From positions 1-64,000 of IMG/VR virus record IMGVR_UViG_3300005613_000025: a stretch of DNA of 64,000 bases; one strand, 5' to 3'. The stretch is from a virus. Below, one piece after another: positions 8,140 to 61,522 of this stretch. Made by a program: the position numbers and the translations under genes. Each line of letters begins with the position of its first letter. Positions within the stretch are counted from its first letter, which is position 1. The notes beneath the pieces were generated by a model. That model had not been told where the DNA came from, did no database searches, and worked only from the letters and a program-made list of their open reading frames with translations.

Positions 8140-8511
8140 ATGCACATAGACAATAAAGAACTATACTATGAGATAATAGTATCAAAGGCAAGAGGTAGAC
8201 TGACCAGAAAATCAGTTAAAATGTTAGAATTATTAGGCAGTGAGGCCATTAAGAGGATGAGTCGTAGATTTTTCACACACGATGATCAAATGGATTGTTA
8301 TCAATCGGGGTTGTTGAAAATGTATCAGAACTGGTATAATTTCAATGAAATGAAATCCGAAAATGCATTTGCCTATTACACAGAGATTTTCAAAAGGGCA
8401 CTCACAGAACAATTCAATGAGCTTTACAAGAAAAAAGGTGATCCTGAACATAATGTTAAGTTGATATCAATTCAAGGATCAAATGAGGGTCAAGGCCTGC
8501 ATTCAATATAG
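8140..8511 (+). CDS. Late-transcription sigma factor (T4 gp55-like)
   Basis: HIDNKELY N-terminus and NFNEMKSENAFAYYTEIFKRA motif. Confidence 0.8.
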   Translation: MHIDNKELYYEIIVSKARGRLTRKSVKMLELLGSEAIKRMSRRFFTHDDQMDCYQSGLLKMYQNWYNFNEMKSENAFAYYTEIFKRALTEQFNELYKKKGDPEHNVKLISIQGSNEGQGLHSI

Positions 8512-52116: not shown

Positions 52117-52589
52117 AAGATAAGGTATTGAAAATTGTAAATGACGAAGAATTCCAAAAACATTTCAATAAGTGGAACTTTTTTGATTATGAGGGAACCT
52201 TAGAAAATGAATTAGGACATTTGCCATATTCCAAGGATCTTTCATTGAGAAAACCTGGTCAGATATTCTTATTTGAGAATTTTCAAGATAGTGATTATCA
52301 AATAATACATTATCCAACATTAGCAGTTTTCTTAGACTATATTCCGTGTGATCAAACCGTTGAAATTGAGTATTCACCTATCAAAAGAAATCATCAATTA
52401 AAGAAAAACGAATATCTCGAAGCAGAGATAAGAAGAGATGCACAATGGCATAATTATCATTTGATATATGGTGTTTGGAATTCTTATCCAACTTGGAAAG
52501 AATTAAGAAGAGCATATGAAAGAACATGGTGGTTCCATAAAACAAAAAAACAAAAAAGAAATATAAAGATCAATCAAATTTTTAAATGA
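52113..52589 (+). CDS. Hypothetical protein with C-terminal tag
   Basis: Ends KRNIKINQIFK. Confidence 0.6.
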   Translation: MKDKVLKIVNDEEFQKHFNKWNFFDYEGTLENELGHLPYSKDLSLRKPGQIFLFENFQDSDYQIIHYPTLAVFLDYIPCDQTVEIEYSPIKRNHQLKKNEYLEAEIRRDAQWHNYHLIYGVWNSYPTWKELRRAYERTWWFHKTKKQKRNIKINQIFK

Positions 52590-53095
52590 GAAAAAACACA
52601 GAGCACAAACTCAATAATCAAGTAAGATTTCCAAAAGTAAGAGTTATCGGTGATGGTGACGGTGAGATAATGTCATCTTATGATGCATTTCAACTTGCAA
52701 AATCACAGGACAAAGACCTTATACTCATATCAGAAAAGGCAGATCCGCCTGTTGTGAAAATAGAAGAGTATAGCAAATTCATCTATGATCAGAAACAGCG
52801 TGAGAAAAAGATGAAAAAGAACCAAAAGCGGGTCGAGATGAAAGAATTGAAACTGAGTGTGAATATTGCAGAACATGACCTCATGGTAAAGGCAAAAAAA
52901 GGTGAAGAGTTTCTCAAAAAGGGAAATAAGATCAAATGCACTTTGATGATGAAGGGCCGACAGAACCAGAACAAACAACAAGGAGAGGTTGTCATGTTGA
53001 AATTCGCAGATATTCTTTCTGACATCGGTGTTCCTGAGTATCTTCCAAAATTACAGGGAAATAAATGGCAAATGACTCTGAAGCCAAAGCAATGA
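52586..53095 (+). CDS. infC: Translation initiation factor IF-3
   Basis: LNNQVRFPKVRVI, PPVVKI, KELKLS..IAEHD, GNKIK, KGRQ. Confidence 0.95.
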   Translation: MRKNTEHKLNNQVRFPKVRVIGDGDGEIMSSYDAFQLAKSQDKDLILISEKADPPVVKIEEYSKFIYDQKQREKKMKKNQKRVEMKELKLSVNIAEHDLMVKAKKGEEFLKKGNKIKCTLMMKGRQNQNKQQGEVVMLKFADILSDIGVPEYLPKLQGNKWQMTLKPKQ

Positions 53096-55379: not shown

Positions 55380-55775
55380 ATGAAAATATATTTAGATTTT
55401 GATGGAACTGTTGTTGAACACATGTATCCTGAAATTGGAAAAATAAATCCAGGATCTTTGGATGTAATACAAAAATTACACGATGCTGGTCACGAAATAA
55501 TAATAAACACGATGCGTGCTGATATGAGAAACGGTACACTACAACAGGCACTGTACTTCCTCAACTCAATACCTTACTGTAATATCAAGTTTGAAAAGTT
55601 CTGTGCATCAAAAGTTGATCCTGATGAATGGGTAACCCCAAATAAAGAAATGGAAAAGATATACATTGATGACATTGCACACGGAATCCCACTCAGAGAC
55701 GGATTCCATGTAGGTTCAAAAATGGTTGATTGGCAAGAACTGAATAGACAATTTACAGATAATAATATTTATTGA
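55380..55775 (+). CDS. HAD-family phosphatase
   Basis: LDFDGTVV, NTMR, YIDD. Confidence 0.85.
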   Translation: MKIYLDFDGTVVEHMYPEIGKINPGSLDVIQKLHDAGHEIIINTMRADMRNGTLQQALYFLNSIPYCNIKFEKFCASKVDPDEWVTPNKEMEKIYIDDIAHGIPLRDGFHVGSKMVDWQELNRQFTDNNIY

Positions 55776-56260
55776 TGAAGAAGGAATTAAGAAAACTCAA
55801 ATTATTTGAACTTGGTATAGGAGAATGGCCATATACTACCTCCTACGAATCGATGAAAGATGTGGTTGATCGAAATCTTGATGGGTGTGTTATCAAGACA
55901 AGTGATGATTGCCCAGATTCTTATGTTTTCATTCAAGGGGGAAAGTATATTATGGAGCAGGATAAAAAAAATGACGCTTTATGGGTCAGATGGGATGGTC
56001 TTTGGTCCATTTTTTCAAATGACTTTTCTTTGGAACATAGTGACATTCAAGCAATTATAAAGTTCCTGGTGGAACAACATCTCAAATCAAAGGTAGGAAC
56101 ACCAAAATACGACTATCCGAATTCAACATCTGAGGTGGAACAACATCTCAAATCAAAGGTAGGAACACCTGGTCTTCATATCAATTACACCATTGAAGGG
56201 GTGGAAAAACATCTCAAATCAAAGGTAGGAACACCCCAGGAATCTACTTGGTACAACTGA
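55772..56260 (+). CDS. Small protein (about 100-aa unique part) reading in frame into the repeat array
   Basis: Repeats translate as VEQHLKSKVGTP; the stop lies inside spacer 3. Confidence 0.7.
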   Translation: MMKKELRKLKLFELGIGEWPYTTSYESMKDVVDRNLDGCVIKTSDDCPDSYVFIQGGKYIMEQDKKNDALWVRWDGLWSIFSNDFSLEHSDIQAIIKFLVEQHLKSKVGTPKYDYPNSTSEVEQHLKSKVGTPGLHINYTIEGVEKHLKSKVGTPQESTWYN

Positions 56261-56301
56261 ACACCGGTGGAACAACATCTCAAATCAAAGGTAGGAACAT
56301 C
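56068..56301. CRISPR. CRISPR-like mini-array: four 36-nt repeats, three 30-nt unique spacers, no cas gene in the window
   Basis: Repeat GGTGGAACAACATCTCAAATCAAAGGTAGGAACACC at 56068, 56134, 56200 (1 mismatch) and 56266 (1 mismatch); terminal GGTG/CACC inverted repeat. Confidence 0.75.
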
Positions 56302-56447
56302 CGATTGGGTCACGCGGATCCTGAGTTGAAAAAATTAGTGGATAATTGAACTCGTGAAAGACTATCAATAGTATCAACATCTGAAAGCCCAAACAACTTT
56401 GACAGATATTTTCAATAGAATTTAAAACTGTTAAAAATATAAAAAAA

Positions 56448-57173
56448 ATGGATTTAGGAAAAGATTTTAGAAAATTTGCCAATTCTGAAGGAATTGCATC
56501 AACAACATTGGACTCAATAGAAGCGTCACTTACACCTTATATTCTTGAAGAACGAGAAATGAGAGCAACTCAGATCGATATATTTTCAAGATTGATGAGA
56601 GATAGAATTCTTTGGGTAAGTGGTGTGGTTGATCAAAGAATGTCTGATGTTGTTCAGGCACAACTTCTATACTTGGACCAAGCAGAAAAGAAAGATATCA
56701 ATATGTATATCAATTCACCAGGTGGTTCTGTTATGAACGGTCTTGGTATTTATGATGTTATGAATTATATCTCATGTGATGTTGCAACTATGAACTTGGG
56801 TATGTGTGCAAGTATGGGATCGGTTCTTCTGTCAAGTGGTGCCAAAGGTAAACGATCATCTTTGATATACTCAAGAGTTATGACACACCAAGTAAGTAGT
56901 GGAAATCAAGGCGTGATTGAAGATACTAGAATATCACAAATAGAAAGTGAAAAGTATAATTACATACTATTCAGAATATTGGCAAAGAATTGTGGTAAAA
57001 CATTTGATGAGATGTTAGATTCGTCAAGAAGAGATAAGTGGTTTAATTCACAGGAGGCTCTTAATTTTGGACTAATTGATGAGGTAATAGGAATTGAAAA
57101 AAACAATGGAATTGAGAACTTATTGGAGGGATTTGATTCATATTATAAAAAAGAGGTTTTAGGAAAATTTTAA
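56448..57173 (+). CDS. clpP: ATP-dependent Clp protease proteolytic subunit
   Basis: DIFSRLMRDRI, YINSPGG, ASMG, MTHQ, RDKW, FGLIDEV. Confidence 0.96.
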   Translation: MDLGKDFRKFANSEGIASTTLDSIEASLTPYILEEREMRATQIDIFSRLMRDRILWVSGVVDQRMSDVVQAQLLYLDQAEKKDINMYINSPGGSVMNGLGIYDVMNYISCDVATMNLGMCASMGSVLLSSGAKGKRSSLIYSRVMTHQVSSGNQGVIEDTRISQIESEKYNYILFRILAKNCGKTFDEMLDSSRRDKWFNSQEALNFGLIDEVIGIEKNNGIENLLEGFDSYYKKEVLGKF

Positions 57174-58294
57174 TCATTTCCAAGCCAATCATACCAATTT
57201 GTCCATTCTTCTTTGTAAACATAATCTGGGGCGGATGGTAAACGAATGAACTCTTCTGGTTTATTTTTACACCATTCTCTCCATTCTTTATTTGTGTTGA
57301 TATTCAAACTTCTTGAAATTTTTCTAGCTTCATTAAAATTCATGTAAAATTCTTTACTTTTACTTCTCTGATTGCTGAATAGATATTCCGACCATTTGAA
57401 GTTTTCATAGTATCTCTCTGGTTTTTTCGGTAAAAAATCAGATAATGTGTTTTCTTTCGATTTCTTTCTATACTCAGCGACGGTAATCTTACCGTAATTT
57501 TCTTTTATCCATATTTTAGCCGATTCAAAATCAAGATAATCATTACCTTTCCTTATTTTAGATTCATATCCTATAAAATCCTCCCACTCAAACAATTCTT
57601 TATAGATATTTTTAGGATTCTTCGGTATAAATAAAGGAATTTCTTTACACCTTCTAAAATCCATAGAATTTTTAAAATCAAAGTTCTCTTTCAGATATTT
57701 TTTAGCTTCTTCGTAACTCAAATAAATATCTTTTCTATTATGTGCATGTATATTTCCTGTTCCTAGATAATCTCCCCAGTATGTCCAATCTGGAAAAACT
57801 TTATTAGGAGCCTTTGGGAGAAAATCGGGAAATTTTTTCATTTTTGACCATTTTTTGTAGTCAATCATTCTTGTTACCCATTCAGGTTTATTTAATTTCA
57901 GCCAAGTTTTACACTCATCAAATGACTTATTATATTTGTTAAACATTTTACCATCACCACCGTCTGTAAGATTTACAAGATTGCATTTTTCTCTGTATTC
58001 CTTAATTGTCTCGGTTTCAACTTTTTTCCATAATTCTTGACTTGACACTTTCAAAACCTTAATACCAACATCACTACCTTTGGAAACAACACTTTTTATC
58101 CAAGATGATTTATAGCTTGTTCTTCTTTTATCATTTTTGTGATCTCTTATTCTCTTTTTTGGATTATCGGTTTTACCAATGTATCTTATTTCATCCTCTT
58201 TACCTATTTCATAGAGTCCATATATGTATGTAATTTTGCAACTGTTCATTAAACTAATGTATATTTTTTCATATACTATATATAAAAAAACCAC
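57170..58294 (-). CDS. GIY-YIG endonuclease with repeated C-terminal DNA-binding units
   Basis: YIYGL...RYIGKT..P..R..DH, NLTDGGDG; repeated LPK.P..Y...W..W units. Confidence 0.8.
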   Translation of the reverse strand: MVFLYIVYEKIYISLMNSCKITYIYGLYEIGKEDEIRYIGKTDNPKKRIRDHKNDKRRTSYKSSWIKSVVSKGSDVGIKVLKVSSQELWKKVETETIKEYREKCNLVNLTDGGDGKMFNKYNKSFDECKTWLKLNKPEWVTRMIDYKKWSKMKKFPDFLPKAPNKVFPDWTYWGDYLGTGNIHAHNRKDIYLSYEEAKKYLKENFDFKNSMDFRRCKEIPLFIPKNPKNIYKELFEWEDFIGYESKIRKGNDYLDFESAKIWIKENYGKITVAEYRKKSKENTLSDFLPKKPERYYENFKWSEYLFSNQRSKSKEFYMNFNEARKISRSLNINTNKEWREWCKNKPEEFIRLPSAPDYVYKEEWTNWYDWLGND

Positions 58295-58478
58295 TTCCCT
58301 ATATGGAAATAAATGAGAATATCAAGAAATCAAAAAGAAAATATGGTGATAGATACAATAAAGAGAATGTAAATGTTCAATTGAATCGAGAATTGATAAA
58401 TAAATTGAAAGAGAAATTGAATAAAGAGAAAAGCATCAAATCTCATATTGAGGAATTGATAGAAAAAGATATCTTAAA

Positions 58479-59213
58479 ATGATAGAATTGAATAGAATAT
58501 TCAACGAAGATTGTCGTGAAACCATGTCAAGGATGGGTGATGATTCGATCGATCTTGTATTGACCTCACCACCATATAATATGATGACACAGGTCAAATA
58601 TAACAAGTATATACGAAGGGTATCACCAAAACACAGATCCAACAAATATCTTGATTTCAATGATGGATTGAAACCTGATGAATTTTATCGGACACACTCA
58701 GAGATACTTAAAGAACTTTTAAGGGTCTCTAAGTGTGTTCTTTATAATTTTCAGATTGTGAGTGGTTCAAAAGAAGCTTTCTTCAAGATAATAGGAGAAT
58801 TCAATACTTATATCAAGGATATAATAATATGGGATAAATGTAGGTCTCTTCCTGCAAGTAGAGAAAAAATATTGAACGCAGGATATGAGATGATACTTGT
58901 CATGGAGAACGACCAACATTTAGGTAGAACAATTCAAAATGCTCAATTTGCAAGATGTGAATTGGATAACATCCTAAGAATTGAAAGAAAAAAAGTTGTC
59001 ATCGATGGTGAAAAACACAACGCTGTCTATCCAGAAGAACTTTGTCGTATCTTGATAGATGCGTTCTCCAAAGAGAACGATATTGTTTATGATCCGTTCA
59101 GTGGTACAGGAACCACATTGAAAATAGCAAAGGAAAGAAATAGGAATTTTATTGGAAGTGAAGTTTCAAGTGAATATTGTAAATTGATTGAAAAAAGGAT
59201 AAGTCTGATTTAA
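58479..59213 (+). CDS. DNA methyltransferase (N4-C/N6-A, beta class)
   Basis: TSPPY, H.AVYPEEL, DPFSGTGTT. Confidence 0.92.
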   Translation: MIELNRIFNEDCRETMSRMGDDSIDLVLTSPPYNMMTQVKYNKYIRRVSPKHRSNKYLDFNDGLKPDEFYRTHSEILKELLRVSKCVLYNFQIVSGSKEAFFKIIGEFNTYIKDIIIWDKCRSLPASREKILNAGYEMILVMENDQHLGRTIQNAQFARCELDNILRIERKKVVIDGEKHNAVYPEELCRILIDAFSKENDIVYDPFSGTGTTLKIAKERNRNFIGSEVSSEYCKLIEKRISLI

Positions 59214-61051: not shown

Positions 61052-61522
61052 ATGAAAAATTATGTTACAAAAAAGGGATATGACCAACTACAATCTCAAC
61101 TTGATAAACTTGTTCGTGTAGATGCACGAGAGGCAATTGAAATGATAGCAGATGCCAAGGACAAAGGTGATCTTTCTGAGAATGCTGAGTATGAAGCTGC
61201 AAAAGCTTATCAAGAATCGGTTCAAATAAAAATACACCAACTTTCTGAAAAATTGAGAAACAGTGAGATAATTTCGACTCCGAAAGATGTCACATCTGTT
61301 GGTATGTTGACACAAGTTGAATTGAAAAATCACACGAACGGTCAGAACATGATCTGGTCATTGGTTCCAGAGAATGAAATAGATATTAAAAATGGTAAGA
61401 TATCATTCAATTCTCCGATAGCTGCCGGACTGATAGGAAGAAAGGTGGGTGAGATGGTTGATGTGAAAGTTCCTGTTGGTGAGATGCGATTTGAAATACT
61501 CGCCATCAAACCACACCTTTGA
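61052..61522 (+). CDS. greA: Transcription elongation factor GreA
   Basis: GDLSENAEYEAAK, ISFNSPIA.GLIG. Confidence 0.95.
   Translation: MKNYVTKKGYDQLQSQLDKLVRVDAREAIEMIADAKDKGDLSENAEYEAAKAYQESVQIKIHQLSEKLRNSEIISTPKDVTSVGMLTQVELKNHTNGQNMIWSLVPENEIDIKNGKISFNSPIAAGLIGRKVGEMVDVKVPVGEMRFEILAIKPHL

Follow-up and report, generated by a model that had tools for sequence, protein, structure and literature searches.

We describe a short CRISPR-type array whose first repeat is the 3' end of a small conserved gene. It lies in the first 64 kb of the 91.7-kb IMG/VR virus record IMGVR_UViG_3300005613_000025 (positions 1 to 64,000; hereafter the window). We read the locus as one copy of a self-contained gene-plus-array module. 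This reading, taken with its output, we place slightly short of an even chance, as a summary judgement lying between our confidence in the mechanism and our confidence in the output rather than as the product of the two. The building of the array is the firmer part: very probably, an integrase of the Cas1-Cas2 type treats the gene family's conserved 3' end as its leader and first repeat. We infer both this enzyme and the output, which in the version that we tentatively prefer would be co-transcription of the array with the gene into spacer-repeat RNAs serving as guides or antisense RNAs.

The array consists of four 36-nucleotide (nt) units with starts 66 nt apart, separated by three mutually unrelated spacers of 30 nt each (Table 1). 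Relative to the first copy the repeats are 100, 100, 97 and 97% identical, and a dinucleotide-preserving shuffle control of the window gave 0.00 matches against the four observed; the coordinates and this control bear out the repeats and spacers that had been proposed from the sequence alone. All repeats begin with GGTG and finish with CACC, except that copy 4 finishes with CATC. The open reading frame (ORF) that enters the array (55772/55775-56260) covers repeats 1-3 and is closed by a TGA within spacer 3, and because this stop precedes repeat 4, that repeat is untranslated. The original prediction was also right that repeat 1 continues the frame of a protein of ~100 residues: the protein is 110 aa long, and repeat 1 codes for its final 12 residues. 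The locus shows what a generic CRISPR array is expected to show, namely near-identical direct repeats of 23-47 nt at regular spacing (here 36 nt, 97-100% identical) and unique spacers of nearly constant length. What it lacks is the non-coding A+T-rich leader, repeat 1 being preceded by a coding 3' end under purifying selection. The features of a protein tandem repeat are absent, in that across the related arrays the frame is broken by stops and by spacers of 29 or 31 nt, and the repeats are base-identical and the spacers unrelated.

In place of a non-coding leader, the 3' end of the gene itself appears to act as one. Six diverged modules share without any change, even at synonymous sites, the final 15 nt of the gene and the initial 12 nt of the repeat, whereas third codon positions elsewhere in these modules are only ~60% alike. 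The earlier statement that the array has no leader is thus correct for a non-coding leader and needs amending for the coding end, whose 15 invariant nt seem to serve in that role. The codons at the junction are rare in the phage (CTG accounts for 8% of Leu codons and GTG for 16% of Val codons), and it is these rare codons that supply the Gs, so that GGTG can pair with CACC at the repeat ends. Furthermore, in the three phage modules that were folded, repeat 1 contains a GGAAC or AGGAAC able to pair with the GTTCCT just before it; this junction helix is of 5-6 base pairs (bp), with fold energies not better than those of shuffled sequences (z -0.3 to -1.5).

The small gene is a real gene under purifying selection. 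Across the six diverged modules, identity was 0.57-0.60 at third codon positions versus 0.78-0.87 at positions 1 and 2. Its ATG overlaps the stop of an upstream 131-aa ORF. AlphaFold2 with a deep alignment returned a confident model over all 110 residues, with a predicted local distance difference test score (pLDDT) of 96.3 and a predicted template-modelling score (pTM) of 0.87; a shallow alignment gave a poor model (pLDDT 55). In the predicted fold, the 12 residues encoded by repeat 1 complete the last helix. No Pfam, PHROG or PADLOC family matches the protein. A Foldseek search of the PDB with the predicted fold found nothing at E <= 0.001, the best hit of a wide structure search with VIA-align reached a Z of only 4.5, a BFVD fold search matched only uncharacterised proteins from one uncultured phage, and the ESM Atlas gave no usable match.

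The module is found family-wide. A second gene-plus-array copy lies 9 kb downstream in the same 91.7-kb record, outside the window (G000:C1:65061-65585). Its gene is 78% identical and ends in its own repeat 1; the array has three repeats and a degenerate fourth, its spacers (29, 30 and 30 nt) are all different, and its repeat differs from that of the window at two bases. Because the first spacer is 29 nt long, the ORF of this copy runs out of frame and meets a TAG stop inside repeat 2. A second phage fragment (G001, 108.5 kb) carries a 71%-identical gene with five repeats, and a metagenome scan for the repeat flanks yielded five further loci. At two of these five, gene-array-gene-array units stand in tandem, the next gene starting 16 nt after the last, degenerate repeat. 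The arrays of the loci read comprise 2-6 repeats. Every close homologue with readable DNA has its own array with different spacers, so that the proposed check, whether homologues are always followed by such arrays, came out positive in those read. Within an array the repeats show no synonymous drift and the peptides encoded by the spacers are not conserved, the reverse of what had been named as evidence for an ordinary protein repeat.

At the protein level, the 15 close homologues have a common C-terminal motif and diverge after it. An exhaustive profile-free search added 114 cluster representatives (clusters at 50% identity) with 25-56% identity; most of these have 100-170 aa, their ends show one common pattern, V/M/L-E-x-x-F/L-K ... 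T-P, and many run into copies of their own C-terminus. An internal repeat of the protein's own C-terminus occurs in 41 of 127 homologues (25-78% identity), 37 of them with an offset of exactly 22 aa (66 nt). Judged from these sequences, every family member has a repeat peculiar to it, and this is in each case derived from the 3' end of that same gene. Among the members, P0025 lies on a 551-kb ENA contig and P0026 on a 244-kb NCBI contig. The exact window repeat occurs in no other record in IMG/VR, which also gave no loci of distant homologues, and tblastn of the proteins P0001 and P0026 against GenBank phages found no match.

Some family members show unusual frames or remnants. P0022, on a 148-kb JGI contig, is annotated as a single 760-aa ORF that passes without a stop through five tandem domain-plus-repeat modules, and P0019 is a single 346-aa ORF that passes likewise through three; these are either real polyproteins or frames open by chance. 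In L018 (62-295), consecutive spacers of 29 and 31 nt are found, which put the ORF out of frame and, two units on, restore it. In the oriented copy of L017, at ~8190-8240, a third gene copy follows the second array directly and is cut to ~14 codons, a remnant that shows tandem duplication and decay of modules.

Growth of the array is polarised. In the two contigs L015 and L008, the upstream flanks (1401 nt) agree at 100% and the downstream flanks (1816 nt) at 99.9%, and L008 equals L015 plus one 66-nt repeat-spacer unit directly after the gene. This difference fits polarised gain at the gene end, and a single deletion of the first unit would look alike. In every array the degenerate repeat is the distal one. 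The 26 spacers of the related arrays are all different; their length is 30 nt in 21, 29 nt in four and 31 nt in one, and their mean G+C content is ~0.44 versus 0.33 for the phage. None of the 26 matched either phage fragment with up to six mismatches allowed (P = 0.008 under a null in which every spacer comes from the phage itself and 17% of its genome is available for matching).

Three spacers of sister arrays match host housekeeping genes in a set of some 400 sampled Flavobacteriales species. Two L017 spacers match a phosphoglucose/phosphomannose isomerase gene (27/29) and valS (27/30), both at orthologous sites in several Flavobacteriales genomes, and the oldest spacer of G001 (L008) matches a gene of the cystathionine gamma-synthase family (25/25 core, three genomes). 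The true host-derived share is probably higher, because a search of this kind can detect a spacer only if its source is a conserved segment of a gene. Three arrays compared with GenBank phages gave no match. An acquisition motif of the Flavobacterium columnare type was not evident beside the two protospacers examined, a number too small to judge by.

Such arrays very probably arise in the following way. An integrase with a 36/30-nt ruler would insert 30-nt DNA fragments at the gene-repeat junction, the repeat being duplicated each time; in this way the full coding end would be kept while all beyond it changes. Cas1-Cas2 was reportedly seen by Nivala et al. in 2018 to insert a spacer at a non-CRISPR site, where the duplicated ruler-length stretch becomes a new repeat, and these events are said to have been rare laboratory accidents at scattered sites. 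A similar event would explain how a gene end becomes repeat 1; here, however, the site is conserved across a gene family and the arrays have been kept over deep divergence. The ruler would be that of the type II-C adaptation modules of Flavobacteriales, which fill VI-B arrays in trans, and the integrase could be supplied by the host or be encoded elsewhere in the phage genome. In F. columnare, the II-C Cas1 fills both II-C and VI-B arrays, with 36-bp repeats and spacers of 28-32 nt, mostly 30, and about half of the new VI-B spacers derive from the bacterium's own chromosome, many of them not targeting mRNA (PMC8092290). The phage array resembles these VI-B/II-C arrays in its growth at the leader end, from which transcription would run into the array, its chromosomal spacers and the absence of adaptation genes at the locus.

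As for the output, the spacer-repeat RNAs would act on host transcripts or DNA through an unseen effector, or as antisense RNA. Translation into the array would be a side effect of the layout and may, speculatively, keep transcription going. For comparison we used type VI-B arrays that were confirmed beside cas13b (NF038190) in Bergeyella zoohelcum, Capnocytophaga and two further Bacteroidota genomes. Common to these and the phage array are the 36-nt repeat, the 30-nt spacers, the spacer-then-repeat direction (leader to array running with the gene strand) and the paired G-N-T-G...C-A-N-C repeat ends. Furthermore, the type VI-B array of Porphyromonas gingivalis is co-transcribed with an upstream gene, and a type VI-B leader-repeat hairpin blocks an extraneous CRISPR RNA (crRNA) from the first repeat (PMC13187072). 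The pairing at the phage junction is a resemblance to this hairpin, not a demonstrated element. The phage locus differs from VI-B arrays in that its leader is a coding gene end, its first repeat is translated and no cas13b was found in the readable phage DNA; it also sits in a phage and is multi-copy, with its own repeat in each paralogue.

Several observations weigh against this account. The repeat is only 18-20/36 identical to three verified Cas13b repeats, which are 24-27/36 identical among themselves; its reverse strand does about as well (16-22/36). Its stem is weak (4 bp, -4.3 kcal/mol, z -0.4) compared with that of the Bergeyella Cas13b repeat (7 bp, -11.2 kcal/mol, z -3.4). Cas13b was present in 3 of 401 sampled Bacteroidota genomes, and the 20 flanking bases of the repeat were found in no genome among 185,579 species, a set outside which the true host may lie. 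Because of the low repeat identity, the weak stem, the rarity of Cas13b and the lack of a cellular match, the array was not filed as type VI-B: of the VI-B likeness originally proposed, the 36/30 geometry and the G-N-T-G...C-A-N-C ends stand, but the repeat sequence does not follow. The suggested comparison with repeat databases was equally negative, with no Rfam CRISPR-DR family and no array in the cellular genomes matching; one CRISPR-DR41 row (17 bits, E 8.4) was rejected as chance-level, lying in the trailer on the other strand. Neither the 91.7-kb nor the 108.5-kb record, which together make up ~200 kb of readable phage DNA and are each 16-18% complete, matched Cas1 (PF01867) or Cas13b (NF038190); the description of the locus as Cas-less thus holds for the readable DNA, the record itself being only 16% complete. 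Family members carry different repeats, a difficulty for any account with only one effector. The comparison of spacers with genomes that had been called for gave Flavobacteriales genes for three spacers of sister arrays but no source for the window's own, which found nothing above chance in the same species sample. With respect to strand, two host matches are antisense to the mRNA and one is sense, with no clear rule. Finally, stops in the frame of the gene occur in 5 of 26 spacers versus ~41% in the other five frames (P = 0.015), which hints that translation matters.

This last observation leads to one of two rival explanations that we consider unlikely but not negligible, and between which we make no distinction in weight. 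It holds that the array is there to be translated, each 30-nt capture writing a 10-residue peptide and a further copy of the 12-residue motif onto the C-terminus, and the protein would then be a phage protein diversified by CRISPR-style DNA capture. Besides the depletion of in-frame stops, it is favoured by the ORF always running into the array, by the 760-aa frame of P0022 that stays open through five modules, by an L017 gene that reads through four spacers and by the position of the repeat-encoded residues within the confidently predicted fold. Yet some 35-40% of spacers break the frame (5/26 by a stop and 5/26 by a length of 29 or 31 nt), and the sister copy in the same phage loses it at its first spacer. 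The second repeat is reached in only 41 of 127 homologues, as random 30-mers would give, the tails would come from random host DNA without evident use, and repeat 4 of the window can never be translated. The original prediction that this is a CRISPR-type array, not kept simply as protein, is borne out by the homologue arrays and their unrelated spacers.

The other, equally unlikely, is that the module is a decoy for integration or a by-product of it. The 3' end of the gene would mimic a leader-repeat junction and, with several sites per genome and many genome copies, absorb integration by the host Cas1-Cas2 and so spare the host array; the phage arrays would be scars that yield no functional RNA. 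Such a target needs no effector and tolerates different repeats in paralogues, and the multiple and tandem copies, the shortness of the arrays (2-6 repeats) and the spacers from the host chromosome, which would be expected if fragments were taken up without selection while the cell's DNA is degraded, all fit. About half of unselected VI-B uptake in F. columnare is likewise self-derived (PMC8092290). However, an array on every module read at the DNA level and a 22-aa period kept family-wide look like the result of selection or of a very high integration rate. Moreover, no phage-derived spacer was found, though phage DNA should dominate an infected cell, and the pairing of the repeat ends is kept by rare codons that a pure integration target would not need.

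An extension of the preferred reading, which we think improbable, is that the 110-aa protein and its array form an autonomous, hitherto undescribed RNA-guided system of giant phages that borrows only the integrase. The protein would be the dedicated partner of the repeat contained in its last codons, binding or stabilising the spacer-repeat RNAs into which its mRNA is cut, and the host-gene fragments would be stocked in the array to silence host functions during takeover. By a count from the translation, the protein is slightly acidic and therefore unlike a typical nucleic-acid binder.

Less probable still is that the locus produces an RNA anti-CRISPR (Racr-like) or a crRNA sponge, with repeats that imitate host repeats of the Cas13b family and load the effector with harmless guides. 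Phage-borne repeat mimics have reportedly been described by Camara-Wilpert et al. in 2023, and the 36/30 geometry, the G-N-T-G...C-A-N-C ends and the orientation of the array along an expressed-looking gene would suit one. No similar host repeat was found, however, in the 185,579 species genomes, and few members of the host order have Cas13b. A sponge would have no need of arrays that grow and take up host DNA, and guides antisense to host mRNAs would trigger Cas13, not silence it.

We give the least credence by far to the view that the locus is a plain tandem repeat in a protein or an artefact of assembly: it is known that repeat proteins can mislead CRISPR finders, and the 66-nt period does keep the frame, but the repeats are base-identical with sharp borders and unrelated spacers, frame-breaking and stop-holding spacers occur, spacers match bacterial genes, and the same structure was assembled independently in IMG/VR, JGI and ENA data.

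Returning to the preferred reading of a gene-plus-array module, its nearest precedents in viruses are the mini-CRISPR arrays of Sulfolobales viruses (PMC6858448) and huge phages (PMC7162821), which are short and come without interference or integration genes. Those of huge phages have a median of six repeats, and they are thought to use the host Cas proteins or hybridisation; the repeat in such virus arrays is that of the host, and their targets are mostly rival viruses (PMC6858448, PMC7162821). The array described here is likewise short, carried by a virus and without an integration or interference gene nearby. It differs in that no host repeat matches, the known spacer sources are host housekeeping genes and the array is fused to a conserved gene. 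We found no published description of a CRISPR-type array in which coding sequence forms both the leader and the first repeat.

If the proposed reading is true, the memory-writing machinery of CRISPR is put to use, or hijacked, for writing into giant-phage genes that encode proteins, and coding sequence can serve as a CRISPR leader and first repeat. This would bear on the origin of new CRISPR arrays, on how phages without nearby cas genes keep evolving arrays, and on the archiving of host gene fragments by phages, whether to shut the host down or to serve as a decoy against its immunisation. The module, at ~0.6 kb, is small enough for a direct test in Flavobacterium, which has a working II-C/VI-B adaptation assay. 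The family is also large, with 114 clusters at 50% identity, no Pfam entry and a confident predicted fold that has no PDB match.

Table 1. Features of the gene-plus-array module in the window.
Feature	Position	Strand	Basis and remarks
Small gene, 110-aa conserved protein (P0001)	55775..56104	+	ORF list, translation, homologues; called ORF continues to 56260
Invariant last 15 nt of gene, presumed leader-repeat junction	56053..56067	+	Identical in six diverged modules; ends GTTCCT
Repeat 1, codons 98 (3rd base)-110 of gene	56068..56103	+	Repeat scan, translation; encoded residues pLDDT ~97
Spacer 1, 30 nt, newest by position	56104..56133	+	No source found
Repeat 2, identical to repeat 1	56134..56169	+	Repeat scan
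Spacer 2, 30 nt	56170..56199	+	Repeat scan
Repeat 3, 1 mismatch (C8 to A)	56200..56235	+	Repeat scan
Spacer 3, 30 nt, holds in-frame TGA (56258-56260) ending ORF	56236..56265	+	Repeat scan, ORF list
Repeat 4, distal, 1 mismatch near 3' end (CATC for CACC)	56266..56301	+	Repeat scan
Trailer, array to ClpP-like gene, without further clear repeat	56302..56447	+	Sequence, ORF list

The 91.7-kb record has a G+C content of 32.7% and a CheckV completeness of 16%. It encodes a gp23-type capsid protein, a helicase, a DNA ligase, homologues of ClpP, GreA and IF-3 (the last at 52586-53095), a NUDIX protein, a methyltransferase and a GIY-YIG protein. Its longest ORF is of 731 aa, and a 731-aa protein shares 78-79% identity with its counterparts in the uncultured phages LR756502.1 (642 kb) and LR745206.1 (635 kb). 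Genomes larger than 634 kb all fall in the Mahaphage clade, with predicted Bacteroidetes hosts (Al-Shayeb et al. 2020, PMC7162821). The source thus appears to be a giant Mahaphage-like phage that infects Flavobacteriales, with a genome estimated at roughly 570 kb. The small-gene family is absent from four complete Mahaphage genomes.

The genes around the modules vary from place to place and include no conserved neighbour; one candidate, a pair of 374-aa ORFs near two modules, was rejected, the two being unrelated. PADLOC found no cas family among eight proteins, the two module proteins and their nearest neighbours included, and its sole matches were of methyltransferase models to the gene at 58479-59213. 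Compared with LR756502.1, the window module lies inside a ~3.8-kb insertion between the ligase and NUDIX genes (55380-59213), which holds the 131-aa ORF, the module, a ClpP-like gene, a minus-strand GIY-YIG gene and a type II-like methyltransferase, and which looks like a variable island. The ClpP-like gene (56448-57173) and the GreA-like gene (61052-61522) share 65-89% of their nucleotides with genes found in many Flavobacteriales genomes. Such likeness suggests that the phage acquired them from the host lineage recently, and it lends support to the assigned host.

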